Source: Candidatus Omnitrophota bacterium (GTDB taxonomy: Bacteria; Omnitrophota; Gorgyraeia; Gygaellales; Profunditerraquicolaceae). From it: DNA of 64,000 bases. The stretch spans positions 21,636-85,635 of the forward strand of contig JAQUOD010000003.1 in assembly GCA_028717245.1 (NCBI GenBank). The letters run 5' to 3'. The notes beneath the pieces are model-generated. The model saw nothing but the letters and a program-made list of their open reading frames with translations. It was not told where the DNA came from and made no database searches. This document shows, piece by piece, positions 350 through 21,919 of this stretch (position 1 is the first letter of the stretch; each line of letters opens with the position of its first letter). Both the position numbers and the translations under genes were made by a program.

Positions 350-367
350 TAAATCCCAAAAATTAAA

Positions 368-450
368 TGCCGGAGAAGGGACTTGAACCCCCATGAGGTT
401 GCCCTCGGCAGCTTTTGAGGCTGCTGCGTCTGCCATTCCGCCACTCCGGC
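368..450 (-). tRNA. tRNA-Leu (anticodon CAA), type II tRNA with long variable arm, 83 nt, CCA not encoded
   Basis: Reverse complement folds as a cloverleaf: acceptor GCCGGAG/CTCCGGC, anticodon stem GCAGC/GCTGC with loop CTCAAAA (anticodon CAA), long variable arm, T-loop GGGGGTTCAAGTCCC. Confidence 0.85.
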
Positions 451-459
451 AATATTTAG

Positions 460-488
460 TTGACGCAAGCTATTTTATATTCTAAAAT
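460..488 (+). promoter_or_regulatory. Sigma70-like promoter for tRNA-Ala (TTGACG - 17 nt - TAAAAT) overlapping a 9-bp perfect palindrome GCTATTTTA...TAAAATAGC
   Basis: Hexamers and spacing read directly from sequence; sits 25 nt upstream of tRNA-Ala. Confidence 0.45.
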
Positions 489-2028
489 AGCACAGGTCAA
501 CAGAATAATTATGGGGCTGTAGCTCAGCTGGGAGAGCACTTGCATGGCATGCAAGGGGTCGAGGGTTCAAATCCCTCCAGCTCCACCAAGAGTGATAGGG
601 TGCTGCTTCAAGGAGAGGACGGAAGGTACCTTCCGTCGAAAAATTGAGGCGGCGCTCTTTTAAAATACAGTTCGAACCAATCTTTTTCAGAAATTCTTTC
701 TGGGATTCTAAATTTCCCCCTCGAATCGCATAACTTCCCTCATTCAAGGTAGTTACAAAGCGCCTGGCCTGTTCGAACCTATTATTACCCTCATCTGCAA
801 AATCTCCCGCTTTTTCCTGTAAATCTTTCTTTAAGCACACTAATTCATTCTTCTTAAGGTTATATTCTTCAAGAGACAGGGAGCCTTGTAGGTAGAGGTC
901 TATAAGCTTGCTTATCTTTGCGTCTATTTCGTTAATCTTAGCCTTGAGATTTTGCAGATGAGTATGTGATGATTGGCTGAAGCGTTCCTTATCTTTTTCA
1001 AGTTCCCTTAAAATATTCTCCAGCCAATCATCACGTAAAGAAACTTTTTGAATGTATTCCTGTATCTGATGCGCCAGCGCTTCCTCACGCACAAACTTTT
1101 GACTTGTGCCTTTGCAGGGAGTGAGTTTTCTGGTGCAGTGGTAATAATGATGGCCTTTCTGGATTTCTGCCGTAACCGTTGCACCGCAAACCCCGCAACG
1201 CATTAGTCCCTTAAAGACAAAATACTTTGTGTTTTTGCTTTGCGGTTTGCCGCGCTGGCGCATCACTATTTGCACTCGGTCAAAAAGTTTCTTGGTAATA
1301 ATGGGTTCATGCTTACCCTCAAAGTGTTCGCCCCAATAAGAGAGGAGTCCATAGTAGAAAGGATTAGTGAGTATCTGCTGGCACTTGCTTATTCTCAACT
1401 TATTTCCCATCTGGGTGGCAAAGCCGAGGGCGTTAATAGTATCGGTTAATCGCTCTAAGGTGTAGTTACCTGTTGCATATAACTCAAACATCTTTCTAAG
1501 TAATGGAGCCTTATTCTTATCTACTACAACTGTCCTTGTCTTAGTATCGTTCAAATAGCCGACTGGCGCGGGACCGGAATAGATACCGTTTCTGATCTTC
1601 TGCCTAATGCCTCGCTTAATATTCTCTGAAAGGTTATCCACATAGTATTTGCTTTGGCCAAAGGCAATAGAGAGCATAAACTTGCCTTGAGCGGTGTTAT
1701 CAAAACGGTAAGTGGGAAATTTTAAGTCCTTAATAACTTCCTTATCAACCAAATAGATTATTTTCCCGCCATCCATAGAATTCCGCGCCAGTCGGTCAGG
1801 ATGCCAAGAAAGTATGCCCTCGGCTTTGCCATGTTCAAGTAGAGAGATCATCTCATTGAATATAGGCCGGCCAGGCGCTTTAGCTGTTCGGGATTCGATA
1901 AACTCCCGGACAATCTCTAATCTTTCCTTCTTAGCGTACTCTAGCGTTTCAGTAATCTGAGCTTGAATAGAAAGAATTTGTCGGTCTTCTTCATCAGTGG
2001 ACTTACGGGCATAGAGAAAGTAACGCAT
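475..2028 (-). CDS. Large serine recombinase (resolvase/invertase N-terminal catalytic domain, recombinase domain, zinc ribbon, coiled coil); C-terminal ~65 aa are encoded by the inverted repeat and the antisense of tRNA-Ala
   Basis: N-terminus YARKSTDEEDRQ..SIQAQ is the serine-recombinase catalytic motif with the Ser nucleophile. CGVCG...HYYHC zinc ribbon and a long K/E-rich coiled coil follow. GGAGG-like RBS (ggaggtttttatgcgt) precedes the start. Confidence 0.85.
   Translation of the reverse strand: MRYFLYARKSTDEEDRQILSIQAQITETLEYAKKERLEIVREFIESRTAKAPGRPIFNEMISLLEHGKAEGILSWHPDRLARNSMDGGKIIYLVDKEVIKDLKFPTYRFDNTAQGKFMLSIAFGQSKYYVDNLSENIKRGIRQKIRNGIYSGPAPVGYLNDTKTRTVVVDKNKAPLLRKMFELYATGNYTLERLTDTINALGFATQMGNKLRISKCQQILTNPFYYGLLSYWGEHFEGKHEPIITKKLFDRVQIVMRQRGKPQSKNTKYFVFKGLMRCGVCGATVTAEIQKGHHYYHCTRKLTPCKGTSQKFVREEALAHQIQEYIQKVSLRDDWLENILRELEKDKERFSQSSHTHLQNLKAKINEIDAKISKLIDLYLQGSLSLEEYNLKKNELVCLKKDLQEKAGDFADEGNNRFEQARRFVTTLNEGSYAIRGGNLESQKEFLKKIGSNCILKERRLNFSTEGTFRPLLEAAPYHSWWSWRDLNPRPLACHASALPAELQPHNYSVDLCYFRI
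513..588 (+). tRNA. tRNA-Ala (anticodon GGC), 76 nt with encoded CCA
   Basis: GGGGCTGTAGCTCAGCTGGGAGAGC...GGTTCAAATCCC...CTCCACCA; anticodon stem CTTGC/GCAAG with loop ATGGCAT; G3:U70 alanine identity pair present. Confidence 0.9.
583..673. repeat. Left copy of perfect ~90-bp inverted repeat; its first 6 nt are the CCACCA 3' end of tRNA-Ala
   Basis: Reverse complement of 583-673 matches 2143-2232 base for base in manual comparison (possible 1-nt indel). Confidence 0.85.
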
Positions 2029-2743: not shown

Positions 2744-2953
2744 TTGTCAAGCAAAATGTTCGATAAAAGATTAAAACAATTAAGAAAGAAAGCTGGCTGG
2801 TCTCAGCAGAGATTAGCAGAAAAGGCCGGTTTATCTTATAACGTTATAACTAAGATCGAGCAAGGAGCAGCTAAGAATCCAAATATTCAAACTATGATTA
2901 AACTCGCTAATGCTTTTCAGATTAGCTTAGATGATCTTGTGGGCAGAAAGTAA
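2744..2953 (+). CDS. XRE-family helix-turn-helix regulator, controller (C-protein)-like; TTG start at 2744 or ATG at 2756
   Basis: 69 aa; LKQLRKKAGWSQQRLAEKAGLSYNVITKIEQG is a classical HTH_3 motif. Lies at the head of the methyltransferase operon; TATAAT at 2730-2735. Confidence 0.75.
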   Translation: MSSKMFDKRLKQLRKKAGWSQQRLAEKAGLSYNVITKIEQGAAKNPNIQTMIKLANAFQISLDDLVGRK

Positions 2954-3045
2954 TTGACAAAAGTAAATTTCTATGGTAAGGTATATCCACAATCAGGTAA
3001 AAGTGGTATGTTCGAAGGGGGAACTGCCACGTTAAAATAATTAAA

Positions 3046-3074
3046 ACCTTCGCTCAAAAGCGAAGGTTTTTTGT
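3046..3074 (+). terminator. Rho-independent terminator (ACCTTCG-loop-CGAAGGT + TTTTTTG) placed between the regulator gene and the first methyltransferase gene
   Basis: 7-bp GC-containing stem followed by a T tract, 8 nt before the ATG at 3082. Preceded by TTGACA (2944-2949) with TGgTAAGGT as an extended -10. Confidence 0.5.
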
Positions 3075-3081
3075 TTATACT

Positions 3082-4152
3082 ATGCGCTATTACGGTTGTA
3101 AAAACAGACTTTTGGATTTTCTTGAAGAAGGAGTTGCAAAAACTGGCATTAACCATGGGTCCAGTTTTTGCGACTTATTCAGCGGGACTACTGTTGTCGC
3201 GCAGCATTTCAAAAGAAAAGGGTTTACTGTTTTTACAAATGATATTATGGAATTTTCATATGCTATTGCTAGAACATATATCAAAAATAATCAATATCCA
3301 TTTTTTAAAGGTTTAAAAGGCCAAGTTATTGGAGTTAATGGTTGTAGAGAAAATATTATAAGAGTAATCGAGCACCTAAATAGCCTTCCGCCATCAAAAG
3401 GCTTTATCTACAATAATTATTGTCCCTCCGGTTCAAAAAATGGACCACATCAAAGGCAATATTTTTCTGATGAAAATGGTAAGAAAATAGATGCGATTCG
3501 TTCTGTAATTCAAGTTTGGAAAGAAGCAGAACTAATAAGCCTTGATGAATTTTATATTCTTTTATCTTCCTTGTTAGAAGCTGTGCCTTTTGTAGCAAAT
3601 ATTTCCGGTAATTATGCGGCTTTTTTGAAGTGTTGGGATCCCAGGGCGTTGAAGCCTTTAAAATTAAGAGTGCCTGTAATACCGCCGAGCAAAAGAAAAA
3701 ATAAAGTGTTTAAAGGCGATGCTAATGAACTGATAAAAAAATTGTCGTGTGATATCCTTTATATGGATCCACCGTATAATGAAAGGCAGTATGCCCCAAA
3801 TTATTTTATGCTCGAACTAATCGCTGAAGGTTGGTTTAACGGCGATAAGCCTCAAATATATGGAAAAACTGGCATGAGGCCATATGAGAATCAGAAGTCT
3901 TCATATTGCCAAAAGGTGAATGTCAAAATTACTTTTAAGGATTTAATAGAAAATGCCGATACTAAATATATGCTTCTAAGCTATAACGATGAAGGGTTAA
4001 TGAACGAAGAGGAAATAGTTGATGTTTTGTCATCCAGAGGAAGAGTAAGGATTCTTGAGCGAGATCATCGCAGGTATAAAAGCATAAATCAGGCTGAAAC
4101 GGATAGGCGCATAGTCAAAGAAAAGTTATATTTTGTTAAGGTGGCGAGATAA
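3082..4152 (+). CDS. DNA adenine (N6) methyltransferase, D12/Dam-like class
   Basis: N-terminal MRYYGCKNRLL (D12-class AdoMet motif) and YMDPPYNE (DPPY catalytic motif IV) at about aa 228; 356 aa. Confidence 0.8.
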   Translation: MRYYGCKNRLLDFLEEGVAKTGINHGSSFCDLFSGTTVVAQHFKRKGFTVFTNDIMEFSYAIARTYIKNNQYPFFKGLKGQVIGVNGCRENIIRVIEHLNSLPPSKGFIYNNYCPSGSKNGPHQRQYFSDENGKKIDAIRSVIQVWKEAELISLDEFYILLSSLLEAVPFVANISGNYAAFLKCWDPRALKPLKLRVPVIPPSKRKNKVFKGDANELIKKLSCDILYMDPPYNERQYAPNYFMLELIAEGWFNGDKPQIYGKTGMRPYENQKSSYCQKVNVKITFKDLIENADTKYMLLSYNDEGLMNEEEIVDVLSSRGRVRILERDHRRYKSINQAETDRRIVKEKLYFVKVAR

Positions 4153-4961
4153 TGGCAGAAAAGTTGAATAAATTAAACGGTGGAACCTGGCTCCAATACT
4201 CTTTCAGTATTTGGCGAGATGTCCAAAAAAACCAGGAAGAATGGAAATTAAAGCATCCCGCCATGTTCCCGATAAAACTGGCAGAACGCTTAATTGAGAT
4301 ATACACAAATAAACCGAATCAAATAGTTCTAGACCCATTTATGGGTAGCGGTAGCGTAATGATTGCTGCTCAAGCTATGAAAATGAAAGGTGTTGGTTTT
4401 GAGATAAACAAGGAATATTGCGGCATGGCTAAAAAGAGGTTAGAAGAAACATACAAAAGCATGTTTAGTGAAGACAATTCTACAATTTACTGTGACTCGT
4501 CTTTAAATATTAAAAAATACTTGGCGTCTGATTTCGTGGATTTAACGGTTACTTCACCGCCCTATTGGGATATCCTAAATCGTAAAAGGACAGCAGACAA
4601 AAAAGAGATTCAAAATTATAGTGATTCTAAAGACGATTTCGGGAATATTCCAAGCTATGAAGATTTCTTAGCTTCATTACAAAAAGTTTTTAAGGAAGTC
4701 TATGATGTTACAAAGCCAAAGCGTTTTTGTATAGTAGTTGTGATGGATATTAGAAAAAATTCTACATTGTATCAGTTGCATTCGGATTTAACTAGGAAAA
4801 TGGAAGAAATAGGTTTTTGTTTAAATGATATTATTATTTGGGATAGACAAAAAGAATATAACAATATGCGTCCACTTGGATATCCGTATTCTTTTATCGT
4901 AAATAAAGTGCACGAATATATATTGATTTTTAAGAAACCAGACATCCAAAAGGAGAAATAA
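4152..4961 (+). CDS. DNA methyltransferase of the N4/N6 (PF01555-like) family, SPPY type (possibly N4-cytosine); motif order X-I-IV
   Basis: HPAMFPIKLAERLI...VLDPFMGSGS matches the conserved H-P-x-x-K/FP...LDPFxGSGT block of DpnA-like methyltransferases but sits at the N-terminus. TSPPYW catalytic motif at about aa 135. Start overlaps the upstream stop (translational coupling). Confidence 0.75.
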   Translation: MAEKLNKLNGGTWLQYSFSIWRDVQKNQEEWKLKHPAMFPIKLAERLIEIYTNKPNQIVLDPFMGSGSVMIAAQAMKMKGVGFEINKEYCGMAKKRLEETYKSMFSEDNSTIYCDSSLNIKKYLASDFVDLTVTSPPYWDILNRKRTADKKEIQNYSDSKDDFGNIPSYEDFLASLQKVFKEVYDVTKPKRFCIVVVMDIRKNSTLYQLHSDLTRKMEEIGFCLNDIIIWDRQKEYNNMRPLGYPYSFIVNKVHEYILIFKKPDIQKEK

Positions 4962-4965
4962 AACA

Positions 4966-5895
4966 ATGTCGACATTTTTAGACCCGGATATGGCTTATCT
5001 GCTAGGTTTAATTGTTGGAAGAGGAACGATGAGAGAGGTAAGCGGTATGAGGCAGCTGGTTATTGATTATCCGTTTCGGAGCTTGGAAGCAAAAGGGATC
5101 AAGAAATCATTTGATACCAAGGACAAGATATTATTAAGTTTAGATGATACTATAAATCGCCTTGGAGAATTAACAGAAGTTACACCAAAGAAGGTACAAT
5201 TAAAAAATTCCGTAAGCATAATCATTGAATCAACCAAAAATTCTTTGCTTTGGCGCAATATTAATAAATTGCTCCAAGGAAAAACAAGTTTTAGGGAAAT
5301 GGAAGTACCGGAAATTATCTTTGGAGCAGAAGAAGAAATAAAAAAAGAGTTCCTTAGAGGTATCGCTGATGTGACTGGCTCTATTGGTACTGGTGGGCGA
5401 GATCAAGCTGGTAGGCACAGGGTTTATATCTCGATTTTAAACGAAAACTGGAAATTACCGGTACAAATTTGTAACCTGCTCCAGAGTGAACCGTTAATAA
5501 TACCTGTGAATACTATAGACTGGGGCCATCCTAACATTCGAAATGGCCATGCCAAGGAATACCATGAAGGGCGAGAGCAAGCTTGGGCTAGAGAGCACCA
5601 ATTAAAGGTTTACGCTGAATATTTTGAGCCAGTGGGTTTCAGGATTATTCATAAAAATGAAATTCTGAAAGAATTAGCAGAATATAATAAATTATATTTC
5701 TCCGGTAGAAAAGCAAAGCTGTGCATGCCCGAAAGAAAGAGGCAGAGGCAAAGAGGTATTCACCCCGAAGAAAATTCTGATAAATTACCGCGAGAGTTGA
5801 AGGGTAAGCATTGCGATACTTATTGGCAGGTTTGTTTGGAGCTTGGCTGTAAACAATCCGACAAAGAGAAAACTCTTTTTCAAGAAAAGGAATAA
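4966..5895 (+). CDS. Hypothetical protein with two degenerate LAGLIDADG-like motifs (YLLGLIVGRGT, FLRGIADVTGS) ~120 aa apart plus a His/Cys-rich C-terminal domain; candidate specificity/endonuclease component of the R-M system
   Basis: The motifs keep the hydrophobic/glycine framework of LAGLIDADG but lack the catalytic acidic residue (R and T instead). The gene position directly after two methyltransferases is where Type II restriction genes normally sit. Confidence 0.35.
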   Translation: MSTFLDPDMAYLLGLIVGRGTMREVSGMRQLVIDYPFRSLEAKGIKKSFDTKDKILLSLDDTINRLGELTEVTPKKVQLKNSVSIIIESTKNSLLWRNINKLLQGKTSFREMEVPEIIFGAEEEIKKEFLRGIADVTGSIGTGGRDQAGRHRVYISILNENWKLPVQICNLLQSEPLIIPVNTIDWGHPNIRNGHAKEYHEGREQAWAREHQLKVYAEYFEPVGFRIIHKNEILKELAEYNKLYFSGRKAKLCMPERKRQRQRGIHPEENSDKLPRELKGKHCDTYWQVCLELGCKQSDKEKTLFQEKE

Positions 5896-6387
5896 ATGTA
5901 TTCATCAGAAAAGGAATTATACCCAGAGATAATAAAATGGCTCGAAAAGTATCTTGAAGGTAAGTATCCTAAAGCCGAAATAAAAGCTTACGATACTTCC
6001 CGGCAAGATTTATCAGAGTTTCTGAGGCACCATAAACTACATTCATTTTTTCCTGAGTTCGAAACATATGTTATTAAAATTGATATCACTGCTTCTATAA
6101 AACATAAAGATAAGTGCGATTTAGCTTTTGTCGAATGTAAGCTAAATTCCATCAATCTAAATGACATATCTCAGCTATTAGGTTACTCAAGGGTTGTTAG
6201 GCCTAGGCATTCCTTTATTATCTCTCCAAATACTATTAGCGCTCCCGTTAGTACCTTAATAAAAATATTTAAACGATATGATATTTTAGATTACGCGACG
6301 GGCGCTCGAATTAGAATCGCCCAGTGGAATAAAATAACTCAAGGAATAGATATTTCGACCTTATTGCCACCGGGTGAGCATTTATAA
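5896..6387 (+). CDS. Small PD-(D/E)xK nuclease-like protein (163 aa); candidate catalytic endonuclease subunit
   Basis: KIDITASIKHKDKCDLAFVECKL gives a D...(17 aa)...E-C-K arrangement, preceded by an N-terminal glutamate-containing helix. Start codon abuts the previous stop (aaggaataaATG). Confidence 0.45.
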   Translation: MYSSEKELYPEIIKWLEKYLEGKYPKAEIKAYDTSRQDLSEFLRHHKLHSFFPEFETYVIKIDITASIKHKDKCDLAFVECKLNSINLNDISQLLGYSRVVRPRHSFIISPNTISAPVSTLIKIFKRYDILDYATGARIRIAQWNKITQGIDISTLLPPGEHL

Positions 6388-6451: not shown

Positions 6452-7882
6452 ATGGAACAACAAACAGAATTACAAGAGCTAAAACCTTGCCCTTCATGCG
6501 GAACTATGCTGCCGTATGACAAATGGCTTAAGGTAGTAGGTGTTTATGAAGAACAGCAAAAACACAGGAAACAGCTCGAGCAAGAACTTTCTAAAGCAAA
6601 AGAGCAAAGCCAAAAACTTAAAGAGGAATACAAAAACGTCAGAGAAAAAGAGAAACAATTAAAAAATCAATACTTGCAAAAAATAAAAGACAGTCGAGCA
6701 CAAGTTAAAGAAACACAAGGGAGATTAAAAAACAAAGAGCGTCTCTTAAAATCAGAACTTAAACAGAAATTTAACTTGCGAGAAGAAAAACTCCAATCTA
6801 GATTTGAAAAAGATAAACAAACAGCATTAAATCGGATCAGAAAAGAAGGGATAAGAATTGGCTCAGAAAAAGAGAAAATAAAAGCAGAAAAACTTAAAAA
6901 TGATATAGAGAAATTAAAAAAAGAACAAGTAGATGCTAAGGCAAAACTTAAAGAGAAATTTCAGAAAGAGCAAGAAAGAATTAAGCGTAAATTAGAAAGA
7001 GAAAAACATAAAGAACAGAAGCAGATTCGTCAAGATGGCATAAAGACGGGAATGGATAAACAAAGAGCGAGGACAGAGAAGGTAAGCCAAATGGCTGAGA
7101 AATATCGAAAAGCAAGAGATGAAGCAATTGAGAAAGCTAAGCAGCTTGAGGAAATGATAAAAAAAGGCACAACGCCACAGATAGAGGGTCTTGATTTTGA
7201 GCATGAGTTAGCTAATCAACTCAAACAGAAATTTCCAGAAGATGAAATAAAACCAACGGGACGAAAAGGTGATATTATTCAGACAGTGCAAGCGGAAAGC
7301 AAGAAGATCGGGAAGATTATTTATGAGTGTAAAAAGACCAAAGAATTTCAGAATCAATTCATAGAACAAATTCGACGCGATAAAGCTAGAGTAATTGCAG
7401 ACCATGGGATAATCGTTACTTGGGCTACCAAAGAAGACAGGCGGGGTTTTTGGGTCGAAGGCGATATAATTATAGTTCATCCCTATGGAGTTTTGGATAT
7501 GGCAACATTCCTTCGAGAAACATTACTACAGATGTATGCGCTTAAATTATCAAAGTCAGAATTTGAAACTAAAGGTAAGGCCATACTTGAATTTATGCAA
7601 TCCGAAGAATTTAGGACCCGAATTCAAGATTCTATTACGAAAAGTAAAGAAGCCTATGATATTTTGAAAAAGGAAGTCAAAACACATATGAATACTTGGA
7701 AAAAGAGATTCAAAATATACGAGGGAATCCATAGAAATACTAGCATTATTCAGAATACGGTTCGTTACGTGTTGCTTCACGGTAAAATTCCGGAGAAACT
7801 TCCTGAGGCAAAAGAACTCCCAGCTTTACCTCTATCAATGGAAACAACAGGAAATAAGTCCAGGCCTATTTTAGAGACATAA
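6452..7882 (+). CDS. Zinc-ribbon / long coiled-coil / C-terminal PD-(D/E)xK-like protein, resembles the DUF2130 family
   Basis: N-terminal CPSCG...Y, ~190 aa K/E-rich heptad-like region, then GDIIQTVQ...GKIIYECKK (D...E-x-K); 476 aa. Confidence 0.4.
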   Translation: MEQQTELQELKPCPSCGTMLPYDKWLKVVGVYEEQQKHRKQLEQELSKAKEQSQKLKEEYKNVREKEKQLKNQYLQKIKDSRAQVKETQGRLKNKERLLKSELKQKFNLREEKLQSRFEKDKQTALNRIRKEGIRIGSEKEKIKAEKLKNDIEKLKKEQVDAKAKLKEKFQKEQERIKRKLEREKHKEQKQIRQDGIKTGMDKQRARTEKVSQMAEKYRKARDEAIEKAKQLEEMIKKGTTPQIEGLDFEHELANQLKQKFPEDEIKPTGRKGDIIQTVQAESKKIGKIIYECKKTKEFQNQFIEQIRRDKARVIADHGIIVTWATKEDRRGFWVEGDIIIVHPYGVLDMATFLRETLLQMYALKLSKSEFETKGKAILEFMQSEEFRTRIQDSITKSKEAYDILKKEVKTHMNTWKKRFKIYEGIHRNTSIIQNTVRYVLLHGKIPEKLPEAKELPALPLSMETTGNKSRPILET

Positions 7883-21612: not shown

Positions 21613-21919
21613 AAGATACGCAAGCATTAAAATTTGCGGGTTTAAAAAAATAACCCCTTTTGCCAAGAGAGTCTATAGGGTAGTATTAAATATTCCTTTG
21701 GGTGAAGTGCGTAGTTATGCCTGGGTGGCGCAGAAAATCGGCTGCCCTAAAGCCGCGCGCGCAGTAGGGCAGGTTTTAAAACGCAATCCCTGGCCCTTGA
21801 TTATTCCCTGCCACCGGGTAATTTCTGCGGACGGGAAACTCACCGGTTATTCCTCCGGAATAAAAAAGAAAAAGCTGCTTTTAGATTTAGAGAAGCAATT
21901 AAGCAAAGATATGGTATAA
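21602..21919 (+). CDS. Methylated-DNA-protein-cysteine methyltransferase DNA-binding domain protein (MGMT/Ogt family)
   Basis: Active-site motif IPCHRVI and the preceding HTH. Confidence 0.75.
   Translation: MADKRYASIKICGFKKITPFAKRVYRVVLNIPLGEVRSYAWVAQKIGCPKAARAVGQVLKRNPWPLIIPCHRVISADGKLTGYSSGIKKKKLLLDLEKQLSKDMV

Follow-up and report, generated by a model that had tools for sequence, protein, structure and literature searches.

A predicted LAGLIDADG-fold protein without its canonical acidic pair and an adjoining PD-(D/E)xK nuclease as candidate subunits of a restriction endonuclease in Candidatus Omnitrophota

The restriction endonucleases BtsI and BsrDI are each built from a large and a small subunit, which in BtsI are BtsIB (328 amino acids) and BtsIA (164 amino acids). 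Each enzyme is accompanied by two methyltransferases, which are an N6-adenine and an N4-cytosine enzyme for BsrDI and are called only amino-methyltransferases for BtsI (PMC1950550). The small subunit of BtsI, a PD...EXK nuclease, has no activity by itself (PMC2909958; PMC1950550). The large subunits BtsIB and BsrDIB can nick DNA without their partners, and they carry a mutationally proven PD-type site near the N-terminus (D58, E72 and Q85/R86 in BtsIB) followed by a target-recognition region (PMC1950550). Among LAGLIDADG proteins, those of the WhiA type do not digest DNA, and in the T. maritima protein the two acidic positions are occupied by Arg and Gly (PMC3384342). Catalytically inactive I-SceI has also been fused to PvuII to create engineered enzymes with a target of ~18 bp (PMC3258161). 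Two adjoining genes in a 64,000-nucleotide stretch of DNA from a Candidatus Omnitrophota bacterium (positions 21,636 to 85,635 of the forward strand of contig JAQUOD010000003.1, assembly GCA_028717245.1; hereafter the window, numbered from its first letter) invite comparison with these cases and are the subject of this report.

The first gene (4966-5895, plus strand) encodes a protein of 309 amino acids, here called LAG, with a predicted double LAGLIDADG fold that lacks the canonical catalytic acidic pair. The second gene (5896-6387, plus strand) encodes a protein of 163 amino acids, here called NUC, that is predicted to be a minimal PD-(D/E)xK nuclease. Both proteins bear the database name "hypothetical protein" in a Candidatus Omnitrophota metagenome-assembled genome, as found by exact-sequence look-up. 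We consider it probable that LAG and NUC are the DNA-targeting and the cleavage subunit, respectively, of a Type II (IIS/IIT-like) restriction endonuclease, and that the N6-methyladenine (m6A) and probable N4-methylcytosine (m4C) methyltransferases encoded upstream protect the host. This assignment of function draws on sequence, predicted structure and genomic context, for which folds, residue conservation, gene linkage, fusions and methyltransferase co-occurrence were computed directly. An initial annotation, made from the letters alone, had described the two abutting open reading frames (ORFs) as partners in a bipartite nuclease. The ORFs are as it gave them, and the pairing is upheld by the conserved adjacency, co-variation and fusions described below.

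The structure of LAG was predicted with high confidence and has a double LAGLIDADG fold. The top 50 Foldseek matches to this model are all LAGLIDADG proteins, each with a probability of 1.00, and no other nuclease fold stands above the LAGLIDADG matches in these fold searches. The first LAGLIDADG motif, YLLGLIVGRGT, spans residues 11-21 (4996-5028, plus strand), and the second, FLRGIADVTGS, spans residues 129-139 (5350-5382, plus strand). The two are 118 amino acids apart. In an hhalign comparison between an alignment of 102 LAG sequences and I-DmoI, whose reference sequence was confirmed to be identical to PDB 1b24_A, MAYLLGLIVGRG is aligned with SAYLLGLIIGDG, which places R19 of LAG on the catalytic residue D21. 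Position 19 is Arg in 102/102 of the aligned sequences and R, K, H or N family-wide, and is acidic in none of the members examined. The motif residues R19, G20, R131, G132, D135 and V136 are each present in all 102 sequences, and we take the invariant D135 to be the non-catalytic sixth position of the LAGLIDADG consensus.

The second motif has the same G-x4-X-G register as the first and lies at the end of a predicted helix (residues 123-137), such that T137 occupies the canonical acidic position. In the alignment this residue is T in 59 sequences, A in 40, S in 2 and C in 1; across all sequences examined it is T, A, S, N or C, and never acidic. To judge from these sequences, the canonical active-site acidic pair is lost in every member examined. 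These findings support the initial annotation, which had proposed a LAGLIDADG fold, two motifs ~120 amino acids apart, and the replacement of both catalytic acidic residues by R and T. A conventional restriction endonuclease motif, which it had named as evidence against its reading, is lacking in LAG: there is no conserved (D/E)xK in the LAG family, and the BtsIB-type pattern (P/A/F)D-x13-17-E-x12-QR is found in 0 of the 102 sequences. LAG has no match at E <= 1 in Pfam, NCBIfam or PADLOC, and no Pfam LAGLIDADG model is hit; the fused and giant forms described below are likewise unmatched. Searches of PDB sequences returned nothing for LAG and no LAGLIDADG entry for the profile of the 102 sequences. 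LAG has 549 homologues, and 391 clusters of the family at 50% identity are present among 1.84 billion representatives.

The two halves of LAG are conserved to different extents, with an entropy of 2.10 bits in half-domain 1 and 1.54 bits in half-domain 2. The beta-sheet of half-domain 1 varies at 1.7-2.8 bits, whereas the lowest entropy in LAG (0.73 bits) is that of strand beta4' in half-domain 2, where a GHPN insert is also conserved. This contrast leads us to read half-domain 1 as the specificity element. The conserved block of half-domain 2 (5524-5607, plus strand) has the form G187-H-P-N190...R192...W207...E210-H-Q-x-K214 and is near-invariant across all loci. Its candidate roles are docking of NUC, a constant DNA contact or a cryptic site. 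An HNH or His-Me reading of this block was rejected, since the model contains no beta-beta-alpha element in this region and there is no HNH protein among the structural matches listed.

There are 18 conserved basic positions in LAG, and the protein ends in a basic tail (5722-5850, plus strand; isoelectric point 9.2) with conserved C253, H266-P-x-E269, H282, C290 and C295. In the fused forms this tail precedes the linker to NUC. H266, E269 and H282 are invariant family-wide and the Cys residues vary in some clades. A zinc-finger reading of the C-terminal Cys residues is weakened by their replacement in several clades in which H266, E269 and H282 stay. As a separate observation, some fused proteins (e.g. 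residues 43-82 of L047:5743-7386) carry an insertion of ~30 amino acids in half-domain 1 with a weak match to the treble-clef family zf-tcix (E 3.6e-5, below the curated cut-off).

The model of NUC (predicted local distance difference test score of 96) is a minimal PD-(D/E)xK fold with a restriction-endonuclease-like alpha/beta core. Its predicted catalytic core (6082-6186, plus strand) comprises D63 (6082-6084), E80-C81-K82 (6133-6141) and Q93-L-L-G96-Y97 (6172-6186). Residues D63, E80, C81, K82, Q93, G96 and Y97 are invariant in 101 sequences, and the pattern D...ExK...Q..GY is kept in all free NUC proteins and in the NUC domain of every fusion. The initial annotation had named the correct residues and the correct fold for this protein, but it gave the motif as D-x17-E-C-K where the spacing is D63-x16-E80-C81-K82. 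There are 131 homologues of NUC. The only result in Pfam, NCBIfam and PADLOC at E <= 1 is a sub-threshold match to NDK (nucleoside diphosphate kinase; E 0.16), the only match among PDB sequences is weak and irrelevant (PcfF), and the REase_II models of PADLOC match neither NUC nor LAG. It is by its modelled fold and its D...ExK triad that NUC is classed as a PD-(D/E)xK nuclease. Several of its structural neighbours (PaqCI, FokI, LlaBIII, Cap4 and Can2) are built of multiple domains and leave recognition or sensing to a separate part of the enzyme.

The two proteins are closely associated in genomes. A scan of one genome per species gave 57 loci, which are spread over numerous bacterial phyla and archaeal lineages and include the cultured hosts Alkaliflexus imshenetskii DSM 15055 and Calidifontibacillus oryziterrae ZYK. 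In hidden Markov model searches of all ORFs in these loci, a NUC homologue accompanies LAG in 54. Among the three others, two have a contig end at or just after LAG, and the third (L054) encodes one of the giant proteins described below. The same layout was seen in four individual homologue look-ups, and where LAG is ~50% identical, the downstream genes are NUC homologues at 39-45% identity. Pairwise identities of LAG and NUC across 49 non-redundant loci are tightly correlated (r = 0.95, rho = 0.84), in comparison with rho ~0.35 for either protein against the methyltransferases. Moreover, LAG and NUC form a single polypeptide of ~545 amino acids in 12 loci, and the top 150 representatives include 22 clusters of such fused proteins, with LAG at residues ~1-340, a linker of ~55 amino acids, and NUC at ~400-540. 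As predicted proteins, these are gene-fusion evidence for a common function. Because of the conserved adjacency, co-variation and natural fusions, a partnership between LAG and NUC is strongly supported by the sequences.

In the window, the ATG start codon of NUC (5896) directly follows the TAA stop codon of LAG (5893-5895). The genes share one reading frame in which this TAA is the sole separator, and the sequence AAGGA is located 3 nucleotides upstream of the ATG. These features make translational coupling of the two genes plausible. Loss of this one stop codon, or readthrough, would yield a LAG-NUC fusion resembling the natural forms, which differ from such a product by the presence of the linker. 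The shared frame is not kept in other loci, such as L006 and L004, where the genes are out of frame.

There are further variations in architecture among the relatives. All fused loci have their methyltransferases downstream and on the opposite strand, and those of L060 match the same PADLOC models as the methyltransferases of the window. In L058-L060, an HTH (helix-turn-helix) controller-like gene lies directly upstream of the fused gene. The fused systems (L046, L047, L051, L055 and L057-L064) also always carry a second, free NUC paralogue, here called NUC' (e.g. L060:7627-8133). NUC' has KPD...NRS...E where NUC has D...ExK...Q; it thus retains KPD but has NRS at the position of ExK and E at that of Q93. 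By its sequence, NUC' could be either a pseudo-nuclease that serves as a dimer partner or a nuclease with a rearranged active site. Another locus, L049, has two NUC genes.

A third architecture consists of proteins of 900-1300 amino acids with a C-terminal LAG domain (L054:754-4128; P0325, P0326, P0328, P0331, P0370 and P0432). In L054 an N6_N4 methyltransferase gene follows the giant gene and a NUC gene is absent. The N-terminal 700-1000 amino acids of these giant proteins match nothing in Pfam, PADLOC or PDB sequences, and comparison with the NUC profile revealed no NUC-like domain in the N-terminus of the proteins longer than 900 amino acids (hhalign probability 1.7%). In Alkaliflexus imshenetskii there is an extra ORF of 124 amino acids without a Pfam match between the fused methyltransferase and LAG (L030:5609-5983), and an ORF just downstream of NUC (L030:7586-8551) resembles, by eye, a group II intron reverse transcriptase.

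LAG and NUC are the last two genes of an operon that runs in one direction and begins with a controller gene followed by two methyltransferase genes. M1 (3082-4152, plus strand; 356 amino acids) is a D12-class N6-adenine DNA methyltransferase with a DPPY motif (Pfam MethyltransfD12, 1.9e-38; PADLOC MTase_II PDLC03287, 3e-95). M2 (4152-4961, plus strand; 269 amino acids) is an N6_N4 DNA methyltransferase with an SPPY motif (Pfam N6_N4_Mtase, 2.3e-38; PADLOC MTase_II, 7e-50), and from this motif its product is probably m4C. M2 matches Pfam PF01555 in permuted order, with its residues 19-95 aligned to profile positions 142-221 and SPPY following later, which suggests that its motif order is circularly permuted relative to the model. 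The first gene (2744-2953, plus strand; 69 amino acids) encodes an HTH_3 controller-like, or C-protein-like, protein (Pfam HTH_3, 6e-18; PADLOC Control_protein, 1.7e-8).

A methyltransferase adjoins LAG-NUC in essentially every locus. The N6_N4 type represented by M2 is the most consistent partner, being present in nearly all of the 57 loci, and the D12 type represented by M1 occurs in only part of the family. There are at least four unrelated methyltransferase set-ups. Mostly in archaeal loci, N6_N4 is found alone. D12 and N6_N4 occur together, either as separate proteins, as in the window, or as a fusion of ~615 amino acids (an M1-M2 fusion in L025-L035). C. oryziterrae pairs N6_N4 with an Eco57I-like N6 methyltransferase. 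Finally, a protein of 700 amino acids that joins an EcoRI-type m6A domain to a C5-cytosine domain is encoded by the Lactiplantibacillus plantarum plasmid p9 (6.5 kb; NZ_CP060181.1) and by a Lachnospiraceae phage. Homologues of LAG are also found on a second L. plantarum plasmid and in an Anaeroplasmataceae phage.

Type II restriction-modification (R-M) systems are recognized by endonuclease genes that adjoin DNA methyltransferase genes, and such is the arrangement here. The spread of LAG-NUC is patchy, and its carriers include plasmids, phages and islands. A constant LAG-NUC partner, methyltransferase families that are swapped around it, a patchy spread and mobile carriers together resemble the behaviour of a restriction endonuclease. 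Asymmetric Type IIS sites typically go with two different methyltransferase activities, as in the m6A and m4C pair M.BsrDI. The frequent presence of two such activities beside LAG-NUC therefore suggests asymmetric targets, and an asymmetric site would fit a monomeric, pseudo-dimeric reader.

The proposed system would operate as follows. LAG would serve as a DNA-targeting module, built on a single-chain, pseudo-dimeric LAGLIDADG scaffold from which both of the metal-binding acidic residues have been lost. It would bind the unmethylated site and recruit NUC, which would then cut. The variable half-domain 1 probably reads an asymmetric site, and the conserved half-domain 2 and the basic tail probably hold NUC or make constant DNA contacts. 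NUC would be a minimal PD-(D/E)xK domain (D63, E80 and K82) with no recognition domain of its own. It is probably a dimer that cuts both strands near the site, as hinted at by the second NUC paralogue in the fused systems and by the two NUC genes in L049. The design would pair a recognition part with a cleavage part in the manner of Type IIS enzymes, with the two on separate polypeptides here and joined in some clades. We infer DNA binding by LAG, cleavage and dimerisation by NUC, and the position of the cut; likewise, LAG would be the source of specificity and would lack a cryptic active site. More broadly, we lean slightly towards the view that these genes represent a natural and widespread family of restriction enzymes, in which a dead single-chain LAGLIDADG scaffold reads the sequence and a generic PD-(D/E)xK cutter is attached to it, either non-covalently or as a fusion.

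Several observations weigh against this proposal. Profile alignment of half-domain 2 of LAG with I-DmoI is not significant and gives no support for the equivalence of T137 and E117; therefore, the equivalence of the second motif rests on its register and on predicted structure. Half-domain 2 contains unusually many invariant polar residues (E128, D135, H188, N190, R192, E210, H211, Q212 and K214), which would also fit a cryptic active site. The presence of NRS in place of ExK in NUC' leaves one intact PD-(D/E)xK site per fused unit, and a simple two-site cut of both strands is then unexplained. If NUC' is inactive, double-strand cutting by the fused units would need a higher-order assembly, sequential cutting or cryptic activity in LAG. 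Furthermore, LAGLIDADG enzymes normally read 14-40 bp, which is far above the length of typical R-M sites. The folds behind the proposed targeting and cutting roles were modelled for LAG and NUC separately. Membership of LAG in the large-subunit family of BtsI and BsrDI, which the similar sizes had suggested, was rejected on motif and fold by comparison with the published description of that family.

Some of these points favour an alternative in which LAG and NUC each have catalytic activity, as do the subunits of BtsI, BsrDI and BspD6I. LAG would recognise the site and nick one strand through a non-canonical site in half-domain 2, and NUC would cut the other strand. We judge this to be unlikely, but give it a tangible share of the probability because of the NUC' substitutions and the invariant polar residues, which cluster in half-domain 2 and in the beta3'-beta4' insert. 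A second site in LAG would explain how fused systems with one intact PD-(D/E)xK site cut both strands. There is also precedent in BtsIB and BsrDIB, which nick alone and have small subunits that are inactive alone; the subunit sizes are similar, and BsrDI has an m6A and m4C pair (PMC1950550). However, the canonical LAGLIDADG metal ligands are missing in every member, and the family contains neither a conserved (D/E)xK nor the BtsIB-type pattern. Fold searches with LAG placed no other nuclease fold above the LAGLIDADG proteins, and WhiA, which is similarly substituted, does not digest DNA. We know of no LAGLIDADG protein that cuts without its acidic residues.

It is improbable, in our estimate, that NUC is instead a self-sufficient small restriction enzyme, of about the size of PvuII, with LAG as an accessory DNA-binding regulator outside the enzyme (WhiA-like, or a controller of R-M expression). 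A protein of 163 amino acids is indeed within the size range of the smallest Type IIP enzymes. However, a major branch of the family consists of proteins in which LAG and NUC are covalently fused, and LAG and NUC co-vary far more tightly with each other than either does with a methyltransferase. The role of regulator is also poorly suited to LAG, as a separate HTH controller is already there and LAG, unlike WhiA, has no HTH domain. In addition, the two methyltransferase activities suggest asymmetric sites, which are a poor fit to a homodimeric Type IIP enzyme, and several structural neighbours of NUC are multidomain proteins in which recognition or sensing is a separate part. Most improbable of all is that the pair is no restriction enzyme but a homing-type element, domesticated or selfish, or else a toxin, and merely travels with methyltransferases, for which one can cite the selfish nature of typical LAGLIDADG proteins, the mobile setting (a serine recombinase and inverted repeats) and the relatives on plasmids and phages, but against which stand the adjacent and interchangeable methyltransferases in essentially every locus, which is the R-M pairing pattern, the lack of an intron or intein context, and the loss of the LAGLIDADG catalytic residues, which makes homing by the canonical mechanism impossible.

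The mobile setting of the window is as follows. The operon and two downstream genes are enclosed by inverted repeats of ~430 bp, which were found by a repeat search and have their left arm at 2216-2643 and their right arm at 8936-9362. Within these arms, 2497-2643 pairs with 8936-9082 (147 nucleotides, 100%) and 2216-2334 pairs with 9244-9362 (119 nucleotides, 94%). The repeat-bounded block could be an invertible or transposable cassette. A second inverted repeat (580-673 with 2143-2236; 94 nucleotides, 99%) brackets a large serine recombinase ORF (475-2028, minus strand), which is adjoined by genes for tRNA-Leu (367-451, minus strand) and tRNA-Ala (513-588, plus strand). An Rfam search of the flanking repeats returned only the two tRNAs and no family for the repeats themselves.

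The two downstream genes inside the block encode a 476 amino acid protein that has a DUF2130 domain and whose long N-terminal half is rich in Lys and Glu (6452-7882; E 2.4e-25 for DUF2130) and a 317 amino acid protein with a weak DUF3800 match (7954-8907). Genes of the DUF2130 and DUF3800 types were absent beside LAG-NUC in the four homologue look-ups that list neighbours, and none was detected near LAG-NUC in the 57 genome loci. Both may be independent genes with a role in defence or as cargo. Between the HTH controller gene and M1 there is a hairpin with a 12-bp stem followed by a T-run (3043-3070). It resembles a terminator on either strand and might act as an attenuator or operator. A promoter scan gave no enrichment relative to shuffles.

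Restriction endonucleases are grouped into a few catalytic and structural classes, namely PD-(D/E)xK, HNH, GIY-YIG, PLD and half-pipe. In the literature searched there is no account of an R-M component with a LAGLIDADG fold, and neither the family libraries searched nor the database names describe LAG-NUC. The word LAGLIDADG has zero occurrences in a 2014 review of Type II enzymes and in a 2025 review of R-M systems; elsewhere in that literature, it is used only for the fold of homing endonucleases, maturases or WhiA. The combination of a dead LAGLIDADG protein and a small nuclease thus appears to be undescribed for R-M systems. If our reading is correct, LAG would be the first part of an R-M system to have a LAGLIDADG fold, bringing a new DNA-recognition fold and subunit design, and would be the second case, after WhiA, in which the meganuclease scaffold was independently domesticated. 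The family would be a natural split or fused counterpart of the chimeras of dead meganucleases and cleavage domains made by nuclease and nickase engineers, and half-domain 1 would be a compact and evolvable specificity element for short asymmetric sites. A function would also be given to ~390 clusters of "hypothetical proteins" in bacteria, archaea, plasmids and phages. Hosts suited to testing these possibilities are L. plantarum P9 with plasmid p9, Alkaliflexus imshenetskii DSM 15055 and Calidifontibacillus oryziterrae ZYK.

In comparison with known systems, LAG shares its fold and helix motifs with the monomeric LAGLIDADG homing endonucleases I-DmoI, PI-PfuI and PI-SceI, and its first motif (YLLGLIVGRG) is nearly identical to that of I-DmoI (YLLGLIIGDG). 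It differs from these enzymes in that it lacks the catalytic Asp and Glu (D21 and E117 in I-DmoI), has no intron or intein context, and is linked to a methyltransferase in essentially every locus. It also has the extra conserved GHPN and EHQxK elements and the Cys/His tail. With WhiA (DUF199) it shares the replacement of the catalytic acidic residues, by Arg and Gly in WhiA and by Arg and Thr or Ala in LAG. However, LAG has neither the C-terminal HTH domain nor a Pfam WhiA match, and ends instead in a basic Cys/His tail. Whereas WhiA is a conserved housekeeping gene, LAG is found in R-M operons, is paired or fused with a nuclease, and is patchy and mobile in its distribution.

The engineered fusions of I-SceI and PvuII resemble the proposed system in that a dead LAGLIDADG scaffold addresses a PD-(D/E)xK cutter to DNA. 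These are artificial and have targets of ~18 bp, whereas the natural family must match the short sites that are methylated by its cognate methyltransferases. As in FokI-type enzymes, recognition and cleavage are modular, and the fused forms have the same layout of recognition, linker and cleavage parts. FokI also has two methyltransferase activities for its asymmetric site. The LAG-NUC system differs in that its recognition module is LAGLIDADG rather than winged-helix/HTH and in that the modules of the window are separate polypeptides. The cleavage domain of FokI-type enzymes, a non-specific PD-(D/E)xK domain, dimerises, which for NUC is a prediction.

The resemblance to BtsI and BsrDI extends to the sizes of the large and small subunits (328/164 versus 309/163 amino acids), the two methyltransferases, and the presumed dependence of a small PD...EXK subunit on a large one that recognises the site. 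The related single-chain enzymes BsmI and BsrI also parallel the LAG-NUC fusions. The differences are as follows. BtsIB and BsrDIB have a PD-type site of their own and are not described as LAGLIDADG, whereas the N-terminal half of LAG is a LAGLIDADG half-domain; and their gene order is M1-S-M2-L with S and L opposed, in contrast to the co-directional M1-M2-L-S found here, where S and L are the genes for the small and large subunits. By analogy of architecture, BtsI and BsrDI are the closest functional analogues of LAG-NUC.

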